From Escherichia coli (GTDB lineage Bacteria; Pseudomonadota; Gammaproteobacteria; Enterobacterales; Enterobacteriaceae), in NCBI RefSeq assembly GCF_003018255.1, contig NZ_CP027440.1: a stretch of 64,000 bases of DNA. One strand, given 5' to 3'. Under the pieces are notes generated by a model. That model did not search any database and was not told the origin of the DNA. It was given only the letters and a program-made list of their open reading frames with translations. Made by a program: the position numbers and the translations under genes. Positions 7,972 through 37,209 of the stretch are shown piece after piece. How positions within the stretch are numbered: position 1 is the first letter of the stretch; each line of letters opens with the position of its first letter.

Positions 7972-8152
7972 AAGAAATCCTTTCTTAGAGAATTATTGAG
8001 GCCCGGTATCATACCGACTGCAACAATGAAATAAGAGCAAACGAAGAAACTTTCAGAATTAGGCCCGGCGGCGCAGAAAATTTTGCTATTCGCCTCGCAA
8101 GAACGGAGAGCCGTCGATTGACACTAAGGGCGGAGTGACATAATTTCAGGAG

Positions 8153-8300
8153 TGAGGGTTAGGGAGAGGTTTCCCCCTCCCCCTGGTGTTCTTAGTAAGC
8201 CTGGAAGCTAATCACTAAGAGTATCACCAGTATGATGACGTGCTTCATCATAACCCTTTCCTTATTAAAAGCCCTCTTCTCCGGGAGAGGGTTTCCCGTT
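8153..8300 (+). ncRNA. sibA: Sib antisense RNA antitoxin, copy 1 (boundaries approximate)
   Basis: Plus-strand -35 ttgaca 8118-8123, 17 bp spacer, -10 taattt 8141-8146; transcript fully covers ibs ORF; hairpin plus T tract near 8268-8303. Confidence 0.55.
8192..8251 (-). CDS. ibsA: Ibs type I toxin, 19 aa hydrophobic peptide (MMKHVIILVILLVISFQAY)
   Basis: Reverse complement of 8192..8251 reads ATGATGAAGCACGTCATCATACTGGTGATACTCTTAGTGATTAGCTTCCAGGCTTACTAA; SD-like ggaaaggg upstream. Confidence 0.8.
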   Translation of the reverse strand: MMKHVIILVILLVISFQAY

Positions 8301-8487
8301 TCAGCGTCCCGCTGAAATCGTCGGCTTACCTCCTTTCGCCCTGAATGCAGTCTATCGCTAACGCGTGAACAAAATAGTTTCCTCTGTGATTATTGCGTAA
8401 CGACTCGCAAAGAATATTTGCTGGCAGGATCGCAGACTACAAAGCCTGCGGATTGACAATCTTATCGTGAAGGCATAATTTCAGGAG

Positions 8488-8630
8488 TGAGGGTAGAGCG
8501 GGGTTTCCCCCGCCCTGGTAGTCTTAGTAAGCTGGCCAGCTAATAACTAAGAGCACCACGATGATGAGTAGCTTCATCATGACCCTTTCCTTATTTAAGG
8601 CCCCTTCCTCGGGAGGGGCTTTCCCGTTTC
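8488..8630 (+). ncRNA. sibB: Sib antisense RNA antitoxin, copy 2 (approximate)
   Basis: ttgaca 8453-8458, 17 bp spacer, taattt 8476-8481; hairpin ggccccttcctcgggaggggct followed by ttcccgtttc. Confidence 0.55.
8524..8580 (-). CDS. ibsB: Ibs type I toxin, 18 aa (MMKLLIIVVLLVISWPAY)
   Basis: Reverse complement of 8524..8580 gives ATGATGAAGCTACTCATCATCGTGGTGCTCTTAGTTATTAGCTGGCCAGCTTACTAA. Confidence 0.8.
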   Translation of the reverse strand: MMKLLIIVVLLVISWPAY

Positions 8631-8815
8631 AGCGTCCCGCTGAAATCGGCGGCCTACCTCCTTTCGCCATGCAAGCAGTCTATCGCTAACTTGCAGATAA
8701 AATAGTTTCACATGTGATTATTGCGTAACGTCTCGCAAAGAATATTTGCTGGCAGGATCGCAGACTACAAAGCCTGCGGATTGACAATCTAATTGTGAAG
8801 GCATACTTTCAGGAG

Positions 8816-8957
8816 TGAGGGTAGAGCGGGGTTTCCCCCGCCCTGGTAGTCTTAGTAAGCCGGGAAGCTTATGACTAAGAGCACCACGATGATGATCCAC
8901 TTCATCATGACCCTTTCCTTATTTAAGGCCCCTTCCTCGGGAGGGGCTTTCCCGTTT
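8816..8957 (+). ncRNA. Sib-family antisense RNA, copy 3 (approximate)
   Basis: ttgaca 8781-8786, 17 bp spacer, -10-like tacttt 8804-8809; terminator hairpin ending near 8957. Confidence 0.5.
8852..8908 (-). CDS. Ibs-family type I toxin, 18 aa (MMKWIIIVVLLVISFPAY)
   Basis: Reverse complement of 8852..8908 gives ATGATGAAGTGGATCATCATCGTGGTGCTCTTAGTCATAAGCTTCCCGGCTTACTAA. Confidence 0.75.
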   Translation of the reverse strand: MMKWIIIVVLLVISFPAY

Positions 8958-9143
8958 CAGCGTCCCGCTGAAATCATCGGCTTACCTCCTTTCGCCCTGA
9001 ATGCAGTCTATCGCTGACTTGCGGATAAAATAGTTTCACATGTGATTATTGCGTGACGTCTCGCAAAGAATATTTGCTGGCAGGATCGCAGACTGCAAAG
9101 CCTGCGGATTGACAATCGGACCGTGAAGGCATACTTTCAGGAG

Positions 9144-9287
9144 TGAGGGTAGAGCGGGGTTTCCCCCGCCCTGGTAGTCTTAGTAAGCTGGGTAGCTAAC
9201 GACTAAGAGCACCACGATGATGAGTATCTTCATCATGACCCTTTCCTTATTTAAGGCCCCTTCCTCGGGAGGGGCTTGCCCGTTTCA
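9144..9287 (+). ncRNA. Sib-family antisense RNA, copy 4 (approximate)
   Basis: ttgaca 9109-9114, 17 bp spacer, tacttt 9132-9137; terminator hairpin ending near 9286. Confidence 0.5.
9180..9236 (-). CDS. Ibs-family type I toxin, 18 aa (MMKILIIVVLLVVSYPAY)
   Basis: Reverse complement of 9180..9236 gives ATGATGAAGATACTCATCATCGTGGTGCTCTTAGTCGTTAGCTACCCAGCTTACTAA. Confidence 0.75.
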   Translation of the reverse strand: MMKILIIVVLLVVSYPAY

Positions 9288-9444
9288 GCGTCCCGCTGAA
9301 ATCGTCGGCCTACCTCCTTTTGCCCTGAATGCAGTCTATCGCTAACGCGTAGATAAAATAGTTTCCTGTGTTATTACTGGATGGGTGCTCGCAAATGTGC
9401 CCGCCATTCAGACGATTCCCGATAGTGTTTCATAATTCCTCCAT

Positions 9445-9462
9445 TTTTCTCCCTGATTGGCT
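9445..9462 (+). promoter_or_regulatory. BaeR response-regulator binding box in mdtA promoter
   Basis: tttttctccctgattggc resembles the BaeR box consensus as recalled (TTTTTCTCCATDATTGGC); about 55 bp upstream of mdtA start. Confidence 0.5.
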
Positions 9463-9514
9463 GGCTACACTAGTATCATTCCGCGAATCGTTTCAGGAAG
9501 AGAAACTCTTAACG

Positions 9515-10762
9515 ATGAAAAGCAGTTATAAATCCCGTTGGGTAATGGTAATCGTGGTGGTTATCGCCGCCATCGCCGCATTCTGGTTCTGGCAAGGCCG
9601 CAATGACTCCCGGAGTGCAGCGCCAGGGGCGACGAAACAAGCGCAGCAATCGCCAGCGGGTGGTCGCCGTGGTATGCGTTCCGGCCCATTAGCCCCGGTT
9701 CAGGCGGCGACCGCCGTAGAACAGGCAGTTCCGCGTTACCTCACCGGGCTTGGCACCATTACCGCCGCTAATACTGTTACGGTGCGCAGCCGCGTGGACG
9801 GTCAACTGATGGCGTTGCATTTCCAGGAAGGCCAGCAGGTCAAAGCAGGCGATTTACTGGCAGAAATTGACCCCAGCCAGTTCAAAGTTGCATTAGCACA
9901 AGCCCAGGGCCAACTGGCAAAAGATAAAGCCACGCTTGCCAACGCCCGCCGTGACCTGGCGCGTTATCAACAACTGGTAAAAACCAATCTCGTATCTCGT
10001 CAGGAGCTGGATGCCCAACAGGCGCTGGTCAGTGAAACCGAAGGCACCATTAAGGCTGATGAAGCAAGCGTCGCCAGCGCGCAGCTGCAACTCGACTGGA
10101 GCCGCATCACCGCACCAGTCGATGGTCGCGTTGGTCTCAAGCAGGTTGATGTTGGTAACCAAATCTCCAGTGGTGATACCACCGGGATTGTGGTGATCAC
10201 CCAGACGCATCCTATCGATTTGCTCTTTACCCTGCCGGAAAGCGATATCGCTACCGTAGTGCAGGCGCAAAAAGCCGGAAAACCGCTGGTTGTTGAAGCC
10301 TGGGATCGCACCAATTCAAAGAAATTAAGTGAAGGCACGCTGTTAAGTCTCGATAACCAAATCGATGCCACTACCGGTACGATTAAAGTGAAAGCACGCT
10401 TCAATAATCAGGATGATGCGCTGTTTCCCAATCAGTTTGTTAACGCGCGCATGTTAGTCGACACAGAGCAAAACGCTGTGGTGATCCCAACAGCCGCCCT
10501 GCAAATGGGCAATGAAGGCCATTTTGTCTGGGTGCTGAATAGCGAAAACAAGGTCAGCAAACATCTGGTGACGCCGGGCATTCAGGACAGTCAGAAAGTG
10601 GTGATCCGCGCAGGTATTTCTGCGGGCGACCGCGTAGTGACAGACGGCATTGATCGCCTGACCGAAGGGGCGAAAGTGGAAGTAGTGGAAGCCCAGAGCG
10701 CCACCACTCCGGAAGAGAAAGCCACCAGCCGCGAATACGCGAAAAAAGGAGCACGCTCCTGA
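9515..10762 (+). CDS. mdtA: Multidrug efflux RND membrane fusion protein MdtA
   Basis: ORF 9368..10762; start placed at ATG 9515 ([16 protein letters not shown]..., 415 aa) rather than the longest ORF; periplasmic adaptor coiled-coil/lipoyl features. Confidence 0.9.
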
Positions 10763-28686: not shown

Positions 28687-30886
<2,200 letters not shown>

Positions 30887-31060: not shown

Positions 31061-32113
31061 TCAGGCGATAGTAATTTTGCTATCGAGATAAACGTCCTGC
31101 ACGGCGTTAATCAGTTTCACGCCGTCAGCCATCGATTTCTTGAACGCCTTACGTCCAAGAATCAGCCCCATTCCGCCTGCGCGTTTGTTGATAACCGCAG
31201 TACGCACTGCATCGCTGAGGTCAGTTTCACCGCCTGCAGCACCGCCGGAGTTTATCAACCCGGCCCGGCCCATATAGCAGTTAGCTAACTGATAACGCAC
31301 CAGGTCAATCGGGTTTTCACTGGTCAGTTTGCTGTAGACTCGATCGTCGGTATAACCGTAGTTAATCGCTTTATAACCGCCGTTATTTTCCGCCATTTTT
31401 TGTTTGACGATATCTGCACCTATGGTCGCCGCCAGATGGTTTGCCTGACCGGTCAGGTCGGCGAAAACATGGTAATCAACGCCATCTTTCTTAAAGGCGG
31501 AGTTACGCAAATAGGCCCACAGCACTGTCACCATGCCCAGCTCGTGCGCACGTTCAAAAGCCGCAGAAATTTCTTCAATCTGGCGACGTGACTCTTCCGA
31601 ACCAAAATAGATAGTCACACCAACCGCCACCGCGCCCATGTTGAAGGCCTGCTCCACGCTGGCATACAGCGTTTGATCGTAGGTATTCGGGTAACTTAGC
31701 GTCTCGTTGTGATTAAGTTTGACGAGGAATGGAATGCGATGCGCGTAACGCCGCGATACCGATGCCAGCACGCCGTAAGTTGACGCCACACAGTTACAGC
31801 CCGCTTCGATCGCCAGTTCAACAATGTTTTTCGGGTCAAAGTAGAGCGGGTTAGCGGCAAATGAAGCTCCGGCAGAGTGCTCAACGCCCTGGTCAACCGG
31901 CAGAATAGAAAGATATCCTGTGCCAGCCAGACGCCCAGTGTTGTACAACGTCTGCATATTACGTAACACCGCTGGCGGGCGATTATTGTCAATCATCACG
32001 CGGTCTACGTAGTCATGTCCGGGGAGATAAAGCTGGTCAGAAGGAATAGTCATACAACGGTGCTGTAAAAGGTTGTCGGCGTCTTTGCCAAGCAACTGCG
32101 CAATATCTGTCAT
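31061..32113 (-). CDS. fbaB: Fructose-bisphosphate aldolase class I
   Basis: ORF 31061..32185; start placed at ATG 32113 ([19 protein letters not shown]..., 350 aa). Confidence 0.9.
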
Positions 32114-32369
32114 TACTATGCTCCCGTAAATTCCGATTGGATATCGGCTATGGATTGTCCTGGCCCGCCTTTTGCGGGCAATCATAATCCTGGTCGTTAC
32201 AGGCGAGTTTTTCCATCTTTTGGATGTTTTTTCAGCGTTTTCTGTTGGCTCGATTCATCAGAAAAAATGTTACCGCGGTCAAGTTTTCACCGCAAAGGTA
32301 TTTAAAAGGTATTATTAAATGGTATTGTCATCGCGTACCTTACATTACCTGTCATGAAGGAATTAAAAG

Positions 32370-33647
32370 ATGAAAACAACAGCAAAGCTGTCGTTCATGA
32401 TGTTTGTTGAATGGTTTATCTGGGGCGCGTGGTTTGTGCCATTGTGGTTGTGGTTAAGTAAAAGCGGTTTTAGTGCCGGAGAAATTGGCTGGTCGTATGC
32501 CTGTACCGCCATTGCGGCGATCCTGTCGCCAATTCTGGTTGGCTCCATCACTGACCGCTTTTTCTCGGCGCAGAAAGTGCTGGCGGTATTGATGTTCGCT
32601 GGTGCGGCGCTGATGTATTTCGCTGCGCAACAGACCACTTTTGCCGGGTTCTTCCCGTTACTGCTGGCCTACTCGCTAACCTATATGCCGACCATTGCGC
32701 TGACTAACAGTATCGCTTTTGCCAACGTGCCGGATGTGGAGCGTGATTTCCCACGCATTCGTGTGATGGGCACTATCGGCTGGATTGCCTCCGGTCTGGC
32801 ATGTGGATTTTTGCCGCAAATGCTGGGTTATGCCGATATCTCTCCGACTAACATCCCGCTGCTGATTACCGCCGGAAGTTCTGCTCTGCTCGGTGTGTTT
32901 GCGTTTTTCCTGCCCGACACGCCGCCAAAAAGCACCGGCAAAATGGACATTAAAGTCATGCTCGGCCTGGATGCGCTGATCCTGCTGCGCGATAAAAACT
33001 TCCTCGTCTTTTTCTTCTGTTCATTCCTGTTTGCGATGCCACTGGCGTTCTATTACATCTTTGCCAACGGTTATCTGACAGAAGTCGGCATGAAAAACGC
33101 CACCGGCTGGATGACGCTCGGCCAGTTCTCTGAAATCTTCTTTATGCTGGCATTGCCGTTTTTCACTAAACGCTTTGGTATCAAAAAGGTATTGTTGCTT
33201 GGTCTGGTCACCGCTGCGATCCGCTATGGCTTCTTTATTTACGGTAGTGCGGATGAATATTTCACCTACGCGTTACTGTTCCTCGGCATTTTGCTGCACG
33301 GCGTCAGTTACGATTTTTACTACGTTACCGCTTACATCTATGTCGATAAAAAAGCCCCCGTGCATATGCGTACCGCCGCGCAGGGGCTGATCACGCTCTG
33401 CTGCCAGGGCTTCGGCAGTTTGCTCGGCTATCGTCTTGGCGGTGTGATGATGGAAAAGATGTTCGCTTATCAGGAACCGGTAAACGGACTGACTTTCAAC
33501 TGGTCCGGGATGTGGACTTTCGGCGCGGTGATGATTGCCATTATCGCCGTGCTGTTCATGATTTTTTTCCGCGAATCCGACAACGAAATTACGGCTATCA
33601 AGGTCGATGATCGCGATATTGCGTTGACACAAGGGGAAGTTAAATGA
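32370..33647 (+). CDS. yegT: Nucleoside-permease-like MFS transporter YegT
   Basis: 425 aa, 12 hydrophobic segments, NupG/XapB-like. Confidence 0.8.
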   Translation: MKTTAKLSFMMFVEWFIWGAWFVPLWLWLSKSGFSAGEIGWSYACTAIAAILSPILVGSITDRFFSAQKVLAVLMFAGAALMYFAAQQTTFAGFFPLLLAYSLTYMPTIALTNSIAFANVPDVERDFPRIRVMGTIGWIASGLACGFLPQMLGYADISPTNIPLLITAGSSALLGVFAFFLPDTPPKSTGKMDIKVMLGLDALILLRDKNFLVFFFCSFLFAMPLAFYYIFANGYLTEVGMKNATGWMTLGQFSEIFFMLALPFFTKRFGIKKVLLLGLVTAAIRYGFFIYGSADEYFTYALLFLGILLHGVSYDFYYVTAYIYVDKKAPVHMRTAAQGLITLCCQGFGSLLGYRLGGVMMEKMFAYQEPVNGLTFNWSGMWTFGAVMIAIIAVLFMIFFRESDNEITAIKVDDRDIALTQGEVK

Positions 33648-34648
33648 AAACAGAACGTATTCTCGGTGCTCTTTATGGGCAGGCGTTAGGGGATGCGATG
33701 GGGATGCCCTCCGAGCTTTGGCCGCGCAGTCGCGTCAAAGCACACTTTGGCTGGATTGACCGTTTTCTGCCTGGGCCAAAGGAGAATAACGCAGCCTGTT
33801 ATTTTAACCGCGCCGAATTCACCGACGATACCTCGATGGCGCTGTGTCTGGCGGATGCGTTACTGGAACGTGAAGGCAAGATCGATCCGGATCTGATTGG
33901 GCGTAATATTCTCGACTGGGCGCTGCGTTTCGACGCCTTTAACAAAAACGTACTAGGTCCGACCTCGAAGATTGCTCTCAACGCCATTCGCGACGGTAAA
34001 CCCGTTGCTGAACTGGAAAACAACGGCGTGACCAACGGCGCAGCGATGCGCGTCTCGCCATTAGGTTGTTTGCTTCCGGCGCGTGATGTTGATTCCTTTA
34101 TTGATGATGTGGCGCTGGCCTCCAGCCCGACACATAAATCCGATCTGGCGGTTGCGGGGGCGGTAGTCATCGCATGGGCGATTTCTCGTGCCATTGACGG
34201 AGAAAGCTGGTCAGCGATTGTTGATTCACTGCCTTCAATTGCGCGACATGCTCAACAAAAACGCATCACTACCTTCAGCGCCTCACTGGCAGCACGTCTG
34301 GAGATTGCGCTGAAAATTGTGCGCAATGCCGACGGCACCGAATCCGCCAGCGAACAGCTTTACCAGGTCGTTGGCGCAGGTACCAGCACTATTGAGTCCG
34401 TTCCGTGCGCCATTGCGCTGGTTGAACTGGCACAAACCGACCCGAACCGTTGCGCCGTCCTGTGCGCTAACCTTGGCGGCGACACAGACACCATCGGTGC
34501 TATGGCGACGGCAATTTGCGGCGCGTTGCATGGCGTTAATACTATCGATCCTGCGTTAAAGGCGGAACTGGATACAGTAAATCAGCTTGATTTCAACCGC
34601 TATGCCACGGCGCTGGCGAAGTATCGCCAACAACGGGAGGCGATATGA
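33644..34648 (+). CDS. yegU: ADP-ribosylglycohydrolase-family protein YegU
   Basis: 334 aa; ARH-family N-terminal motif (LGALYGQALGDAMGMP) and C-terminal GGDTDT; overlaps yegT stop. Confidence 0.8.
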   Translation: MKTERILGALYGQALGDAMGMPSELWPRSRVKAHFGWIDRFLPGPKENNAACYFNRAEFTDDTSMALCLADALLEREGKIDPDLIGRNILDWALRFDAFNKNVLGPTSKIALNAIRDGKPVAELENNGVTNGAAMRVSPLGCLLPARDVDSFIDDVALASSPTHKSDLAVAGAVVIAWAISRAIDGESWSAIVDSLPSIARHAQQKRITTFSASLAARLEIALKIVRNADGTESASEQLYQVVGAGTSTIESVPCAIALVELAQTDPNRCAVLCANLGGDTDTIGAMATAICGALHGVNTIDPALKAELDTVNQLDFNRYATALAKYRQQREAI

Positions 34649-35610
34649 GCGGCGCTCGATTACACACGCTGCTGCCTGAATTAACCTCGCGTCAGCCAGT
34701 TATGGTGATTGGCGCGGCGGTCATTGATGTGATCGCCGACGCTTATGCCCTCCCCTGGCGTGGGTGCGATATCGAACTGAAACAGCAGAGCGTTAACGTT
34801 GGCGGCTGTGCACTGAATATTGCCGTGGCATTAAAGCGCCTCGGCATCGAAGCGGGTAATGCCTTGCCGCTCGGTCAGGGGGTGTGGGCGGAGATTATTC
34901 GCAACCGGATGGCAAAAGAGGACTTAATCAGCCTGATCGATAACGCCGAAGGTGATAACGGCTGGTGTCTGGCGCTGGTTGAGCCTGATGGCGAACGCAC
35001 TTTTATGTCATTCAGCGGTGTGGAAAATCAGTGGAATCGCCAGTGGCTGGCGCGATTAACCGTTGCGCCTGGCAGCCTGCTCTATTTTTCCGGTTATCAA
35101 CTGGCCTCGCCCTGCGGCGAATTGTTAGTGGAATGGCTGGAAAAGCTGCAAGACGTGACGCCGTTTATCGATTTTGGCCCACGTATTGGCGATATCCCGG
35201 ATGCATTACTGGCGCGGATCATGGCCTGTCGACCTTTAGTGTCACTCAATCGTCAAGAGGCTGAGATTGCCGCCGAACGTTTTGCTTTATCCGCAGAGAT
35301 AACAACACTTGGCAAGCAATGGCAGGAGAAATTTGCCGCGCCGTTGATCGTTCGTCTCGATAAAGAGGGCGCATGGTATTTCAGCAACGACGCTTCTGGC
35401 TGCATTCCGGCATTTCCAACGCAAGTTGTAGACACCATTGGGGCGGGCGACAGTCATGCCGGTGGCGTACTTGCCGGGCTGGCCTCTGGTCTGCCACTGG
35501 CGGATGCCGTATTACTGGGCAATGCAGTGGCGTCGTGGGTTGTCGGGCATCGGGGCGGTGATTGTGCGCCAACGCGCGAGGAACTACTCCTCGCACACAA
35601 AAACGTATAG
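34645..35610 (+). CDS. yegV: PfkB-family sugar/nucleoside kinase YegV
   Basis: 321 aa; PfkB signature DTIGAGDSHAGG; overlaps yegU stop. Confidence 0.8.
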   Translation: MSGARLHTLLPELTSRQPVMVIGAAVIDVIADAYALPWRGCDIELKQQSVNVGGCALNIAVALKRLGIEAGNALPLGQGVWAEIIRNRMAKEDLISLIDNAEGDNGWCLALVEPDGERTFMSFSGVENQWNRQWLARLTVAPGSLLYFSGYQLASPCGELLVEWLEKLQDVTPFIDFGPRIGDIPDALLARIMACRPLVSLNRQEAEIAAERFALSAEITTLGKQWQEKFAAPLIVRLDKEGAWYFSNDASGCIPAFPTQVVDTIGAGDSHAGGVLAGLASGLPLADAVLLGNAVASWVVGHRGGDCAPTREELLLAHKNV

Positions 35611-36330
35611 ATCGCTGCGACAGTGGCTGATGCTGTACTCAATAGGCCGTTGCTGTTGGTCAAGCGCCACTTGCTTGATCACCAGCACCGGTATTTTGCT
35701 ATCTAACTGAATATGTGACTGAAACTCGGCATCCGGCATCCGGGCGCTAACGCGGGAACGCGTACGTTGTGGGTAAATGTGCTGGCTGCGGAAGTAGTCA
35801 TAAAGAGAAATCCCGATGGCATCAACATCATGAATTAAATGTGCCGGAACCCACGATTCCTCAATCGATACCGCCTCTTCATCGACATAGCGAATACGCT
35901 TAAGCAAAAAGACATCACTTCCCGCTTCGACCGCCAGCTGCTGCGCGACTTCTTCGGGACATTTCACGACACGCTTGTTAACCCATAACGTATCGGGCTT
36001 TTTCCCGCGCAATACCACCTGCTGAGAAAACCCCCGCGCTTCTTTCAGCGAGTATTCGAAGATGTTGTTGATCTGCGTGCCGTAACCACGCGAACGCGTC
36101 ACCACGCCCTCTTCTTCCAGCGACTGCATCGCCTTGCGCACCGTAATGCGCGAAACGCCGGTTAACTGACTTAAATCACGCTCACCGGGCAAAATATTGC
36201 CATGCTCCAGCACCCCGCTGCGCACGGCATTTTTTACCGTTTCGGCAAACTTAATATAAAGCGGCGTGTTATCCGCCGCTAAAATACGCTCGTTCAGTTG
36301 GGCAATCAGCTGGGTATGCGCTTGTTCCAT
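35584..36330 (-). CDS. yegW: GntR-family (HutC subfamily) transcriptional regulator YegW
   Basis: 248 aa; N-terminal winged HTH and UTRA-like C-terminus. Confidence 0.8.
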   Translation of the reverse strand: MEQAHTQLIAQLNERILAADNTPLYIKFAETVKNAVRSGVLEHGNILPGERDLSQLTGVSRITVRKAMQSLEEEGVVTRSRGYGTQINNIFEYSLKEARGFSQQVVLRGKKPDTLWVNKRVVKCPEEVAQQLAVEAGSDVFLLKRIRYVDEEAVSIEESWVPAHLIHDVDAIGISLYDYFRSQHIYPQRTRSRVSARMPDAEFQSHIQLDSKIPVLVIKQVALDQQQRPIEYSISHCRSDLYVFVCEE

Positions 36331-36381
36331 TTGTCTTTTTCCTGCCGGGGAATCTGGTGGGAGTATATCACTGCTTCTTAT

Positions 36382-37209
36382 TTAAGGCGTTTCTTTAATC
36401 CCATCAACGAATGCCTGCAACTCCTCCACCGTGCCATTAAACACATTAAAATCCACCGGACCATTAATGCCATCGACCTGTCCACGGTCGGAATGCTGCC
36501 AGAAGCGCCAGGCCATGCCGTCATTGTCCGGGCGACGTTGATAATAGTGAGCCACCCACCACGGATATTCATTGAAATAGCCCGCCAGATTGGTGTGATA
36601 AAAAACGGCTCCTGAGTAAATAATTGGCTTTTTACCCGTACGTTTTTCGACCATTTTTAGCCACTGACTTACCCGCTTGCGTAATTCTTTTGCCGATAAT
36701 TTTCCCCGTTCTTCTACGTCCAGCACGGCAGGGAAATCGCCTTGTGAGAAATCCACCGTTTGCAGAAATAATCTCGCCTGAACTGAAGCAGATACCGACG
36801 GGGAAAAATAATGATACGCCCCGCGCAGCAGGCCATTTTCGCGGCTTAGTTGCCAGTTACGCGAAAAATAGGGGTCCACCAGCTTTTCGCCTTCCGTCGC
36901 CTTAATAAAAGCAAACTGTAAGCGGATACCGTTGTCGCGCATTTTTGCCACACGCTGCCAGTCGATCCGCTCCTGCCAGCGTGAAACATCTATTCCGTGA
37001 ATGGTGTAACTGGCAGGAATGCGAATAGCGAAAGATTTAACCGGGCGATAACCGTAGAAGTGGATGTAGTCTTTAATCTGAATTGCTGTCGAATAGAAAA
37101 AATTCACCGTCTGACGCGGATAAATTGCAACGATGGAAATTAGCCCAAGAGCGCATAATAAAACGGTGAATTTTTTTCGACTGGTGATTCTCAACTGCAT
37201 TGGTTTCAT
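36382..37209 (-). CDS. yegX: Glycoside hydrolase family 25 (lysozyme-like) protein YegX
   Basis: 275 aa; N-terminal signal/anchor (FTVLLCALGLISIVAIY) followed by GH25-like domain (GIDVSRWQERIDW...). Confidence 0.7.
   Translation of the reverse strand: MKPMQLRITSRKKFTVLLCALGLISIVAIYPRQTVNFFYSTAIQIKDYIHFYGYRPVKSFAIRIPASYTIHGIDVSRWQERIDWQRVAKMRDNGIRLQFAFIKATEGEKLVDPYFSRNWQLSRENGLLRGAYHYFSPSVSASVQARLFLQTVDFSQGDFPAVLDVEERGKLSAKELRKRVSQWLKMVEKRTGKKPIIYSGAVFYHTNLAGYFNEYPWWVAHYYQRRPDNDGMAWRFWQHSDRGQVDGINGPVDFNVFNGTVEELQAFVDGIKETP

Follow-up and report, generated by a model that had tools for sequence, protein, structure and literature searches.

The yegTUV-yegW locus lies in a 64,000-nucleotide stretch of Escherichia coli DNA (contig NZ_CP027440.1), referred to below as the window. 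The six-frame list of open reading frames (ORFs) places yegT (32370–33647, 425 amino acids (aa)), yegU (33644–34648, 334 aa), and yegV (34645–35610, 321 aa) on the + strand, and yegW, or ggaR (35584–36330, 248 aa), on the − strand. In a strain that is 99.9% identical, RefSeq annotates these genes under the same names and with the same boundaries, with fbaB upstream of the locus and yegX-thiD-thiM downstream. An earlier reading of the letters alone (the original prediction) had taken these genes for a transporter, a hydrolase, and a kinase for a ribosylated compound beside a HutC-type regulator, with cleavage followed by phosphorylation of the sugar. We propose that yegTUV is a GgaR-repressed module for the import, phosphorylation, and cleavage of a non-canonical riboside, a model that, taken as a whole, we consider about equally apt to stand or to fall.

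The start and stop codons of yegT/yegU (33644–33647) and of yegU/yegV (34645–34648) overlap as ATGA, and a Shine-Dalgarno-like purine run (GGGGA or GGGAGG) precedes each overlap. Both these overlaps and the ORFs are exactly as first described from the sequence, and no operon boundary separates the genes, as a published northern analysis detected a single 3.3-kb yegTUV mRNA (PMC10819704). The coding regions of yegV and yegW share 27 nt (35584–35610) at their 3′ ends; the genes are thus convergent, as the text of the original prediction had it, and not divergent, as its title did. The locus was found by megablast in 5424 of 5426 complete E. coli genomes, where it is annotated yegT, yegU, yegV, and yegW, and it is therefore a core-genome locus of E. 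coli.

YegT matches PF03825 over residues 1–405 (E = 1.6e-183) and TIGR00889 with 653.9 bits (cut-off 446.1). By these matches, it is a full-length importer of the NHS (nucleoside:H+ symporter) family of MFS transporters. It aligns almost perfectly with PDB 8ZOJ, the “putative nucleoside transporter YegT”; besides the engineered K267A, the window protein shows two natural differences from this K-12 YegT. In the report of that structure, several uridine-binding residues of NupG were not conserved, and neither uridine nor adenosine, cytidine, or guanosine bound significantly in isothermal titration calorimetry (ITC) (Xiao et al. 2025, PMC11979927). In our alignment, YegT is 27% identical to NupG, keeps five of its ten uridine-site residues (R131, T135, Q252, E255, and D315), and changes the other five (W138, A226, Y229, H310, and Y314), all ten positions being invariant in 38 orthologues. 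YegT has the fold of the NupG/XapB nucleoside:H+ symporters and, in transmembrane helix 10 (TM10), their GXXXD protonation motif, which was described for YegT in PMC11979927; its G311 and D315 align with G319 and D323 of NupG and are likewise invariant in the 38 orthologues. It differs from NupG in the five pocket residues and in the lack of a significant ITC signal with the four nucleosides (PMC11979927).

YegU covers 285 of the 287 positions of PF03747 (E = 6.7e-66), which makes it a member of the ADP-ribosylglycohydrolase (ARH) fold family and a predicted metal-dependent glycohydrolase. Its closest solved relative is MJ1187 (1t5j, E = 1e-29), archaeal and uncharacterised; ARH3 (E = 3e-16) is also among the nearest structures. 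The metal-binding and catalytic residues of ARH3 are E41, T76, D77, D78, D314, D316, and T317 (PMC9738213). All seven are found in YegU, as E24, T60, D61, D62, D280, D282, and T283, and are invariant in 69 homologues; the histidine aligned to ARH3 H182 is also invariant in the family. The remainder of the ARH3 site is different. We take F143 and Y149, which would stack on the adenine, and S148 to be the adenine and diphosphate contacts of ARH3. YegU has Asn126 and Val129 at the positions of F143 and Y149, which are never aromatic across the 69 homologues, and a 3-residue deletion removes the position of S148. Since the catalytic residues are kept and the adenine-site aromatics are gone, YegU has the look of a functional hydrolase of the ARH fold without adenosine recognition. 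Its weak matches to the DraG (TIGR02662, E = 1e-22) and Tri1 (NF041672, E = 1e-19) equivalogs remain below the respective cut-offs, with 80 bits versus 337 and 68.8 versus 490. YegU thus shares its Pfam family and two-metal centre with ARH1, ARH3, and DraG, but lacks the adenine-site aromatics of ARH3 and is coupled to an importer and a kinase, not to an ADP-ribosyltransferase. ARH-family enzymes cleave linkages at ribose C1″ through O or N, the nicotinamide-ribose bond of α-NAD+ among them, and those known are specific for the α-anomer (PMC9738213).

YegV, with a PF00294 match at E = 1.6e-55, is by its sequence a PfkB-family kinase, and the residues of the PfkB core (D28, G53-G54, N58, and G266-A-G-D269) are invariant in 65 homologues. 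Its best solved and NCBIfam matches are ribokinases; its score against the ribokinase equivalog TIGR02152 is 81.5 bits, below the cut-off of 299.65. The ribose contacts of the ribokinase RbsK (1RKD structure) are Asn14, Lys43, and Glu143. At the Lys43 position, 64 of the 65 homologues have a cysteine (Cys55 in YegV); the Asn14 position holds a valine or another hydrophobic residue, and that of Glu143 an alanine or a variable residue. All eleven kinase domains found fused to a YegU-type hydrolase (see below) are also without Asn14 and Lys43 and keep the Asp/GG/Asn/GAGD core, and one of them, P0215, matches ribokinases at E = 2e-32. Because the ribose-contact signature of ribokinases is missing, YegV looks like a riboside kinase, and we predict it to be a riboside 5′-kinase. 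Its match to the pseudouridine kinase model has an E-value of 3e-4.

Comparative genomics speaks for a functional link between the hydrolase and the kinase. A first protein search with YegU reached close enterobacterial orthologues only, and a representative search reached distant relatives; in its exhaustive form it gave 232 cluster representatives at E ≤ 1e-30. Pfam analysis of the multi-domain proteins among these representatives revealed PfkB::ARH and ARH::PfkB fusions, in both domain orders, with kinase domains 26–31% identical to YegV. A scan of reference genomes led to 79 YegU loci; transporters and regulators were counted over 83 loci, that is, these 79 and four contigs encoding fusion proteins. 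The 79 loci span the Enterobacterales, Vibrio, Aeromonas, Chromobacterium, Gilliamella, and many gut Clostridia and Lachnospiraceae, and also include Bacilli, Dialister, Sutterella, Parasutterella, and one spirochaete. In most of them (70/79; one of the nine exceptions is cut by a contig end), including loci of Firmicutes, Dialister, and Sutterella at 29–36% identity, a YegV homologue is encoded no more than 3.5 kb from YegU. Start/stop overlaps between yegU and yegV recur across phyla, with a 4-nt overlap in 28 of 48 adjacent pairs. Hydrolase and kinase make up an ancient unit, which is sometimes fused, and their clustering is far beyond chance.

The transporter beside the pair is not constant. 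It belongs to the NHS family in 38 of the 83 loci, to the PnuC family in 18, to NCS1 in 15, and to the ECF type in 3, and a PnuC-like module protein matches the nicotinamide-riboside transporter 4qtn (E = 2e-47). The uptake component has thus been swapped by non-orthologous displacement around a fixed two-enzyme core, which argues that a riboside- or vitamin-like compound is imported and turned in two steps into central metabolites. A GntR/UTRA regulator is found within 3.5 kb in 60 of the 83 loci, and no further conserved enzyme family was found near the module across the 83, which argues that its products must enter central metabolism directly. The core idea of the original prediction, a transporter, a hydrolase, and a kinase for a ribosylated compound under a HutC-type regulator, is strongly supported by the cross-phylum adjacency, the fusions, and the four unrelated importer families. 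An Rfam scan of 16 homologous loci without a GntR gene (about 229 kb) found no riboswitch next to the module; the matches were an unrelated tetrahydrofolate (THF) riboswitch, signal recognition particle (SRP) RNA, tRNA, and RAGATH-18. Our literature searches returned no paper linking an ADP-ribosylglycohydrolase with PnuC, or with pfkB and a nucleoside, and only irrelevant matches for PnuC with pfkB.

Modules of similar composition are known. In E. coli, psuT (yeiM), psuK (yeiC), and psuG (yeiN) encode an importer, a PfkB kinase acting on the intact nucleoside, and a glycosidase. PsuG cleaves the 5′-monophosphate into ribose-5-phosphate and the base, and kinase and glycosidase are fused in some organisms. 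The yegTUV operon likewise combines an importer, a PfkB kinase, and a glycosidase, sometimes fused; the hydrolases differ in fold (indigoidine-synthase-A-like C-glycosidase for PsuG versus ARH for YegU), as do the transporters in type (NupC versus NHS). It is thus a variant, with an unusual hydrolase fold, of the known importer-kinase-glycosidase design of nucleoside catabolism. According to PMC3161100, the Salmonella enterica operon STM4065-STM4066-STM4067 comprises genes for a permease, for a kinase of the PfkB family, and for a putative ADP-ribosylglycohydrolase; the compound that its kinase STM4066 phosphorylates is a riboside, 5-aminoimidazole riboside (AIRs), rather than ribose (Dougherty & Downs 2003, as cited there). 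Its parts list is that of yegTUV. The possibility that YegV is the orthologue of STM4066, the AIRs kinase, was rejected: the 1tyy structure is matched only at E = 1.3e-4 and 24 bits, about 50th among PDB kinases and far below the ribokinase matches of YegV. A GntR-type regulator, STM4068, reportedly adjoins STM4065-4067, and its loss is said to derepress the operon. Salmonella also carries a true YegU orthologue (P0107, 84% identity); therefore, STM4065-4067 and yegTUV are paralogous modules, presumably with different substrates.

YegW combines an N-terminal GntR winged helix-turn-helix domain (PF00392, E = 2.5e-16) with a C-terminal UTRA domain (PF07702, E = 2.3e-36) and is, by this architecture, a GntR-family regulator of the HutC subfamily. 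With it, all the family assignments made earlier hold in the Pfam/TIGRFAM matches (PF03825, PF03747, PF00294, and GntR with UTRA). The closest solved relative, NagR/YvoA (E = 2e-22), has the same domain architecture, and, like NagR/YvoA and other HutC-type GntR repressors, GgaR represses the adjacent catabolic operon. The NagR residues that we take to bind the phosphate of its effector, N-acetylglucosamine-6-phosphate (GlcNAc-6-P), have as counterparts S102, R145, R147, S175-L-Y177, and E231, all retained in GgaR in the alignment with NagR. Every module-linked regulator conserves S/T102, S175-L-Y177, and E231. The proteobacterial regulators all keep R145, as do 12 of the 17 others; R147 is not conserved outside the proteobacterial ones. 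The retention of these residues fits a phosphorylated inducer.

Much of the regulation has been published. Using chromatin immunoprecipitation on arrays (ChIP-chip), electrophoretic mobility shift assays (EMSA), northern analysis, and reverse transcription quantitative PCR (RT-qPCR), Saito et al. (2024, PMC10819704) renamed YegW GgaR and described it as a single-target repressor that binds one genomic place only. In that work, the yegTUV mRNA was undetectable in the wild type, was derepressed about 30-fold in the ggaR deletion, and rose about 3-fold at higher glucose in a GgaR-dependent manner. ADP-glucose at 10–100 μM, but not glucose or ADP, freed GgaR from its operator in EMSA; this reported effector differs from the amino-sugar phosphate of NagR. 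The ggaR deletion contained 2–3 times more glycogen and grew poorly in M9 glucose, and a yegV deletion appears in a list from a low-glycogen screen; the introduction of the paper notes an inverse relation between growth rate and glycogen, and its authors describe YegT, YegU, and YegV as proteins of unknown function (PMC10819704). A literature search under the name GgaR found no follow-up. The operator and effector of YegW, which the original prediction had listed as points to identify, were thus in part already in print (two binding segments and ADP-glucose; PMC10819704), and its model leaves the glycogen phenotype unexplained.

The primary GgaR site lies in the fbaB/yegT spacer, where the ChIP-chip peak and EMSA probe-2 cover about 190 bp upstream of yegT, and a weaker site, of lower affinity (probe-5), lies in nucleotides 571–869 of yegT, window positions 32940–33238 (PMC10819704). 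The spacer, which holds the yegTUV promoter and this primary site, extends from 32114 to 32369. The mechanical fbaB ORF (31061–32185, − strand) has 374 aa; RefSeq starts the gene 24 codons later, at window position 32113 (350 aa), and the spacer is therefore 256 bp long, not 184 bp. No definition of an operator motif is given in PMC10819704. In the spacer, we observed the half-site GGTATT three times in direct orientation (32297, 32308, and 32321), with spacings of 11 and 13 bp. A conserved GTACC (32335–32339, + strand) comes next and pairs with the third half-site as GGTAT-N9-GTACC; together they form candidate GgaR operator 1 (32297–32339, + strand). A second candidate operator, weaker and intragenic (33177–33206, + strand), reads GGTATC-N5-GGTATT-N7-GGTCTG with the same spacing of 11 and 13 bp. 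The pattern GGT[AC]TN-N5-GGT[AC]TN-N7-GGT[AC]TN, scanned on both strands of the 64 kb, has exactly these two matches (32297 and 33177) and none in 300 shuffles. Both copies fall in published GgaR-binding segments, that at 33177 inside the lower-affinity probe-5. In addition, AAWGGTATT occurs seven times in the window against 0.93 expected, four of the seven being in the yegT region.

The upstream array is kept before yegT in about 12 genera, among them Escherichia, Superficieibacter, Pseudocitrobacter, Enterobacter, Lelliottia, Cedecea, Mangrovibacter, Budvicia, Pectobacterium, Kluyvera, and Providencia. In the Citrobacter variant, the third half-site and the conserved downstream GTACC read GGTAC-N9-GTACC; in that of Vibrio, two direct repeats are accompanied by an inverted AATACC. 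We consider the GGTAT array a candidate GgaR operator near the regulated promoter; the motif is new here and offers a handle for reporter screens. It differs from the NagR/HutC operator, which is one simple palindrome, in having three direct half-sites and a downstream inverted GTACC. Its GGT(A/C)T half-site resembles the dre half-site of TGGTCTAGACCA type. At the intragenic copy, the DNA codes for a conserved peptide, RFGIKKVLLLGL, and the third-codon (synonymous) positions of this copy drift between genera; therefore, selection for GgaR binding at this copy outside E. coli cannot be demonstrated. The only promoter-like site in the fbaB/yegT spacer (32286–32315, + strand) consists of a −35 TTCACC (32286–32291), an 18-nt spacer, and a −10 TATTAT (32310–32315), matching 9 of 12 consensus positions; such sites are at chance level in the scanned region, and this promoter is therefore no more than a candidate. 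Its overlap with the operator repeats agrees with repression by occlusion.

At the other end of the operon, the 3′ coding overlap of yegV and yegW (35584–35610, both strands, from the ORF ends) is a candidate excludon. It is exactly 27 nt long in 25 loci from many enterobacterial genera, and our scan, in which terminator counts were at chance level for the region, found no terminator-like site between the two genes. These two observations suggest antisense read-through into yegW, and the pair was listed as an excludon from RNA-seq coverage by ExcludonFinder (PMC12288877). Read-through from yegTUV could thus lower GgaR synthesis once the operon is on.

These elements can be assembled into a mechanism. 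GgaR would hold yegTUV off through the GGTAT array over the yegT promoter and the weaker copy inside yegT. Its release would give the one 3.3-kb mRNA, from which YegT, YegU, and YegV would be made by coupled translation. YegT would import the riboside by proton symport, and YegV would phosphorylate the 5′-OH of its ribose, trapping the compound in the cell. YegU, with its two-metal ARH fold, would then hydrolyse the bond at ribose C1 to yield ribose-5-phosphate, which would enter the pentose-phosphate pathway, and a free aglycone. The likely inducer is the intermediate in its phosphorylated form, or a compound resembling it, for example ADP-glucose, and read-through from yegV into yegW may damp the synthesis of the repressor. 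Four parts of this mechanism are inferred from the evidence above: that the substrate is a ribosyl compound, that the kinase acts first, which compound is the inducer, and that antisense transcription feeds back on GgaR.

The order of the two enzymatic steps is probably the reverse of that first predicted, in which cleavage preceded phosphorylation of the sugar. The pockets of YegV and of the module kinases, which are without the ribokinase contacts and look like those of riboside kinases, argue for phosphorylation first, as do the ARH substrates, which carry a phosphate on the ribose 5″ position, and the precedents of PsuK/PsuG and Salmonella STM4065-4067. The same is suggested by the Pnu-type importers of other modules, since transport by Pnu proteins is facilitated diffusion and a kinase that phosphorylates the transported compound is typically encoded beside them (PMC5749112). 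As to the substrate, a pyridinium riboside, possibly an α-riboside, is the most concrete lead, because of the α-specificity of the ARH family and the PnuC-type importer in Clostridial modules.

Several points weigh against this kinase-first riboside module. Our literature searches found neither a substrate nor an assay of YegU or YegV. The published physiology concerns glycogen and ADP-glucose as an effector only, which a riboside model does not predict. Phosphorylation first is argued from pocket signatures and analogy, hydrolysis could also trap the compound, and the pathways of Rih-type nucleosidases and RbsK run hydrolase-first. For the contact roles of RbsK, ARH3, and NagR, the alignments verify residue types and positions only, and the promoter call is at chance level. 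Moreover, five enterobacterial loci carry YegU and a GntR gene without kinase or transporter; therefore, YegU can function without a dedicated kinase. An alternative in which YegU cleaves the imported, unphosphorylated riboside and YegV phosphorylates the freed ribose, or a related sugar, to ribose-5-phosphate has to be considered, and we judge it unlikely. The module linkage fits it equally, the best matches of YegV and of the fused kinase P0215 are ribokinases, hydrolysis can stand alone in the five loci just mentioned, and the Rih/RbsK pathways are classical. However, the RbsK ribose contacts are replaced or not conserved in the YegV family, with the near-invariant cysteine at the Lys43 position; the ribokinase equivalog score is far under its cut-off; E. 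coli already has RbsK; and the ARH fold normally handles 5″-phosphorylated ribose. Pnu-type importers, in turn, need a kinase that acts on the imported molecule itself (PMC5749112).

In the published reading, yegTUV belongs to ADP-glucose/glycogen metabolism: GgaR would sense ADP-glucose, and the three proteins would transport, make, or spare it, with more glycogen upon derepression. The release of GgaR by ADP-glucose but not by glucose or ADP, the glycogen content of the ggaR deletion, the place of the yegV deletion in the low-glycogen list, and the GgaR-dependent response to glucose all speak for it (PMC10819704). We nevertheless find it distinctly improbable. In the paper, none of the three proteins is shown to act on ADP-glucose (PMC10819704), a compound without the ribose-C1 acceptor linkage that ARH enzymes cleave (PMC9738213); its hydrolysis would lower glycogen, not raise it; and the PnuC, NCS1, and ECF importers of vitamin and riboside type found in other phyla are at odds with a sugar nucleotide of the cytosol. 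Both the rise in glycogen and the poor growth in minimal medium could be indirect effects of derepression. Two speculative reconciliations with the riboside module can be offered: ADP-glucose may mimic a ribotide effector, and constitutive YegU and YegV may drain an endogenous ribotide, slowing growth in minimal medium and diverting carbon to glycogen. Another view would make YegU a true protein or nucleic-acid de-ADP-ribosylase of the DraG, Tri1, or ARH1/3 type, its neighbours being only loosely related. The ARH Pfam domain with all its metal and catalytic residues and the weak DraG and Tri1 matches agree with this, whereas the scores far under both cut-offs, the non-aromatic or deleted adenine-stacking positions, the translational coupling or fusion to a kinase, the co-operonic importers, and the lack of an ADP-ribosyltransferase partner in the module neighbourhood make it very improbable.

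The locus was already largely charted, its regulator, operon structure, and transporter structure having been published. New here are the operator motif, the intact catalytic residues, the cross-phylum linkage and fusion, the transporter displacement, and the change in the kinase pocket. The yegTUV operon is among the remaining operons of unknown function in the E. coli core genome, and in many gut bacteria the hydrolase-kinase pair is accompanied by one or another of four interchangeable importer families. Its reframing as a riboside-processing module narrows the search to a limited set of non-canonical ribosides, together with their 5′-phosphates. If correct, it would give the ARH fold its first small-molecule catabolic role, explain the paralogous Salmonella STM4065-4068 locus, and show whether the operon is tied to ADP-glucose and glycogen directly or through secondary consequences of derepression. 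That YegU-type enzymes are the first ARH-fold hydrolases for small-molecule ribosides or ribotides, and specific for the α-anomer, is a long shot. In that case, the module would import, phosphorylate, and cleave α-ribosides that are beyond the reach of β-specific nucleosidases and phosphorylases. Candidates would be α-nicotinamide riboside or α-NMN from anomerised NAD(H), and α-ribazole-type lower-ligand ribosides released from gut cobamides, in a widespread salvage or damage-clearance pathway of gut bacteria.

Some variants of the module were observed in other genomes. In Edwardsiella and Serratia (L033, L035, L036, and L047, at about 8001–9800), a YegU orthologue (61–65% identity) with an adjacent GntR gene, without kinase or transporter, lies between phoPQ-like two-component genes with a JmjC (ycfD-like) gene on one side and purB-hflD on the other. 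In Brenneria (L029), the YegU orthologue (65%), also without kinase or transporter, adjoins a short GntR-like fragment in a different neighbourhood. In all of these genomes, the hydrolase is thus an orphan. Aeromonas, Serratia oryzae, and Chromobacterium (L038, L039, and L041; 7000–11300) have a GntR gene in reverse orientation followed by YegU-NCS1-YegV, with a longer YegU (338–385 aa as called); the S. oryzae locus adds a divergent NHS transporter 30% identical to YegT and thus has two importer types. On metagenomic contigs (L080, 1989–11875; also L081 and L082), the gene for a PfkB::ARH fusion comes after a GntR/UTRA gene and one for an ECF-type importer, and the downstream phosphopentomutase-like, NCS1 permease, and DeoC-like genes point to a larger nucleoside or pentose catabolic cluster. 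The THF riboswitch mentioned above (85 bits; L059, 4124–4236, + strand) is about 3.8 kb upstream of the Clostridium clostridioforme YegU homologue and belongs to neighbouring genes.

As for the window itself, only 96 of 5425 E. coli records match its allele of the locus (32000–36800) at 99% identity or more, and the others are 95–99% identical; the window therefore comes from a minority E. coli lineage. Directly beyond fbaB lies gatY (29978–30838, − strand), encoding a tagatose-bisphosphate aldolase subunit, so that two aldolase genes flank the module on one side and the thiamine-salvage kinase genes thiD and thiM on the other. This adjacency is kept only among close relatives and is probably plain synteny. 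The gene yegX (36382–37209, − strand), for a glycoside hydrolase of family 25, is on the same strand as yegW and 51 bp upstream of it. It is found between yegW and thiD in Escherichia loci only, thiD-thiM directly following yegW in Citrobacter, Enterobacter, Kluyvera, and others, and therefore looks like a lineage-specific insertion.

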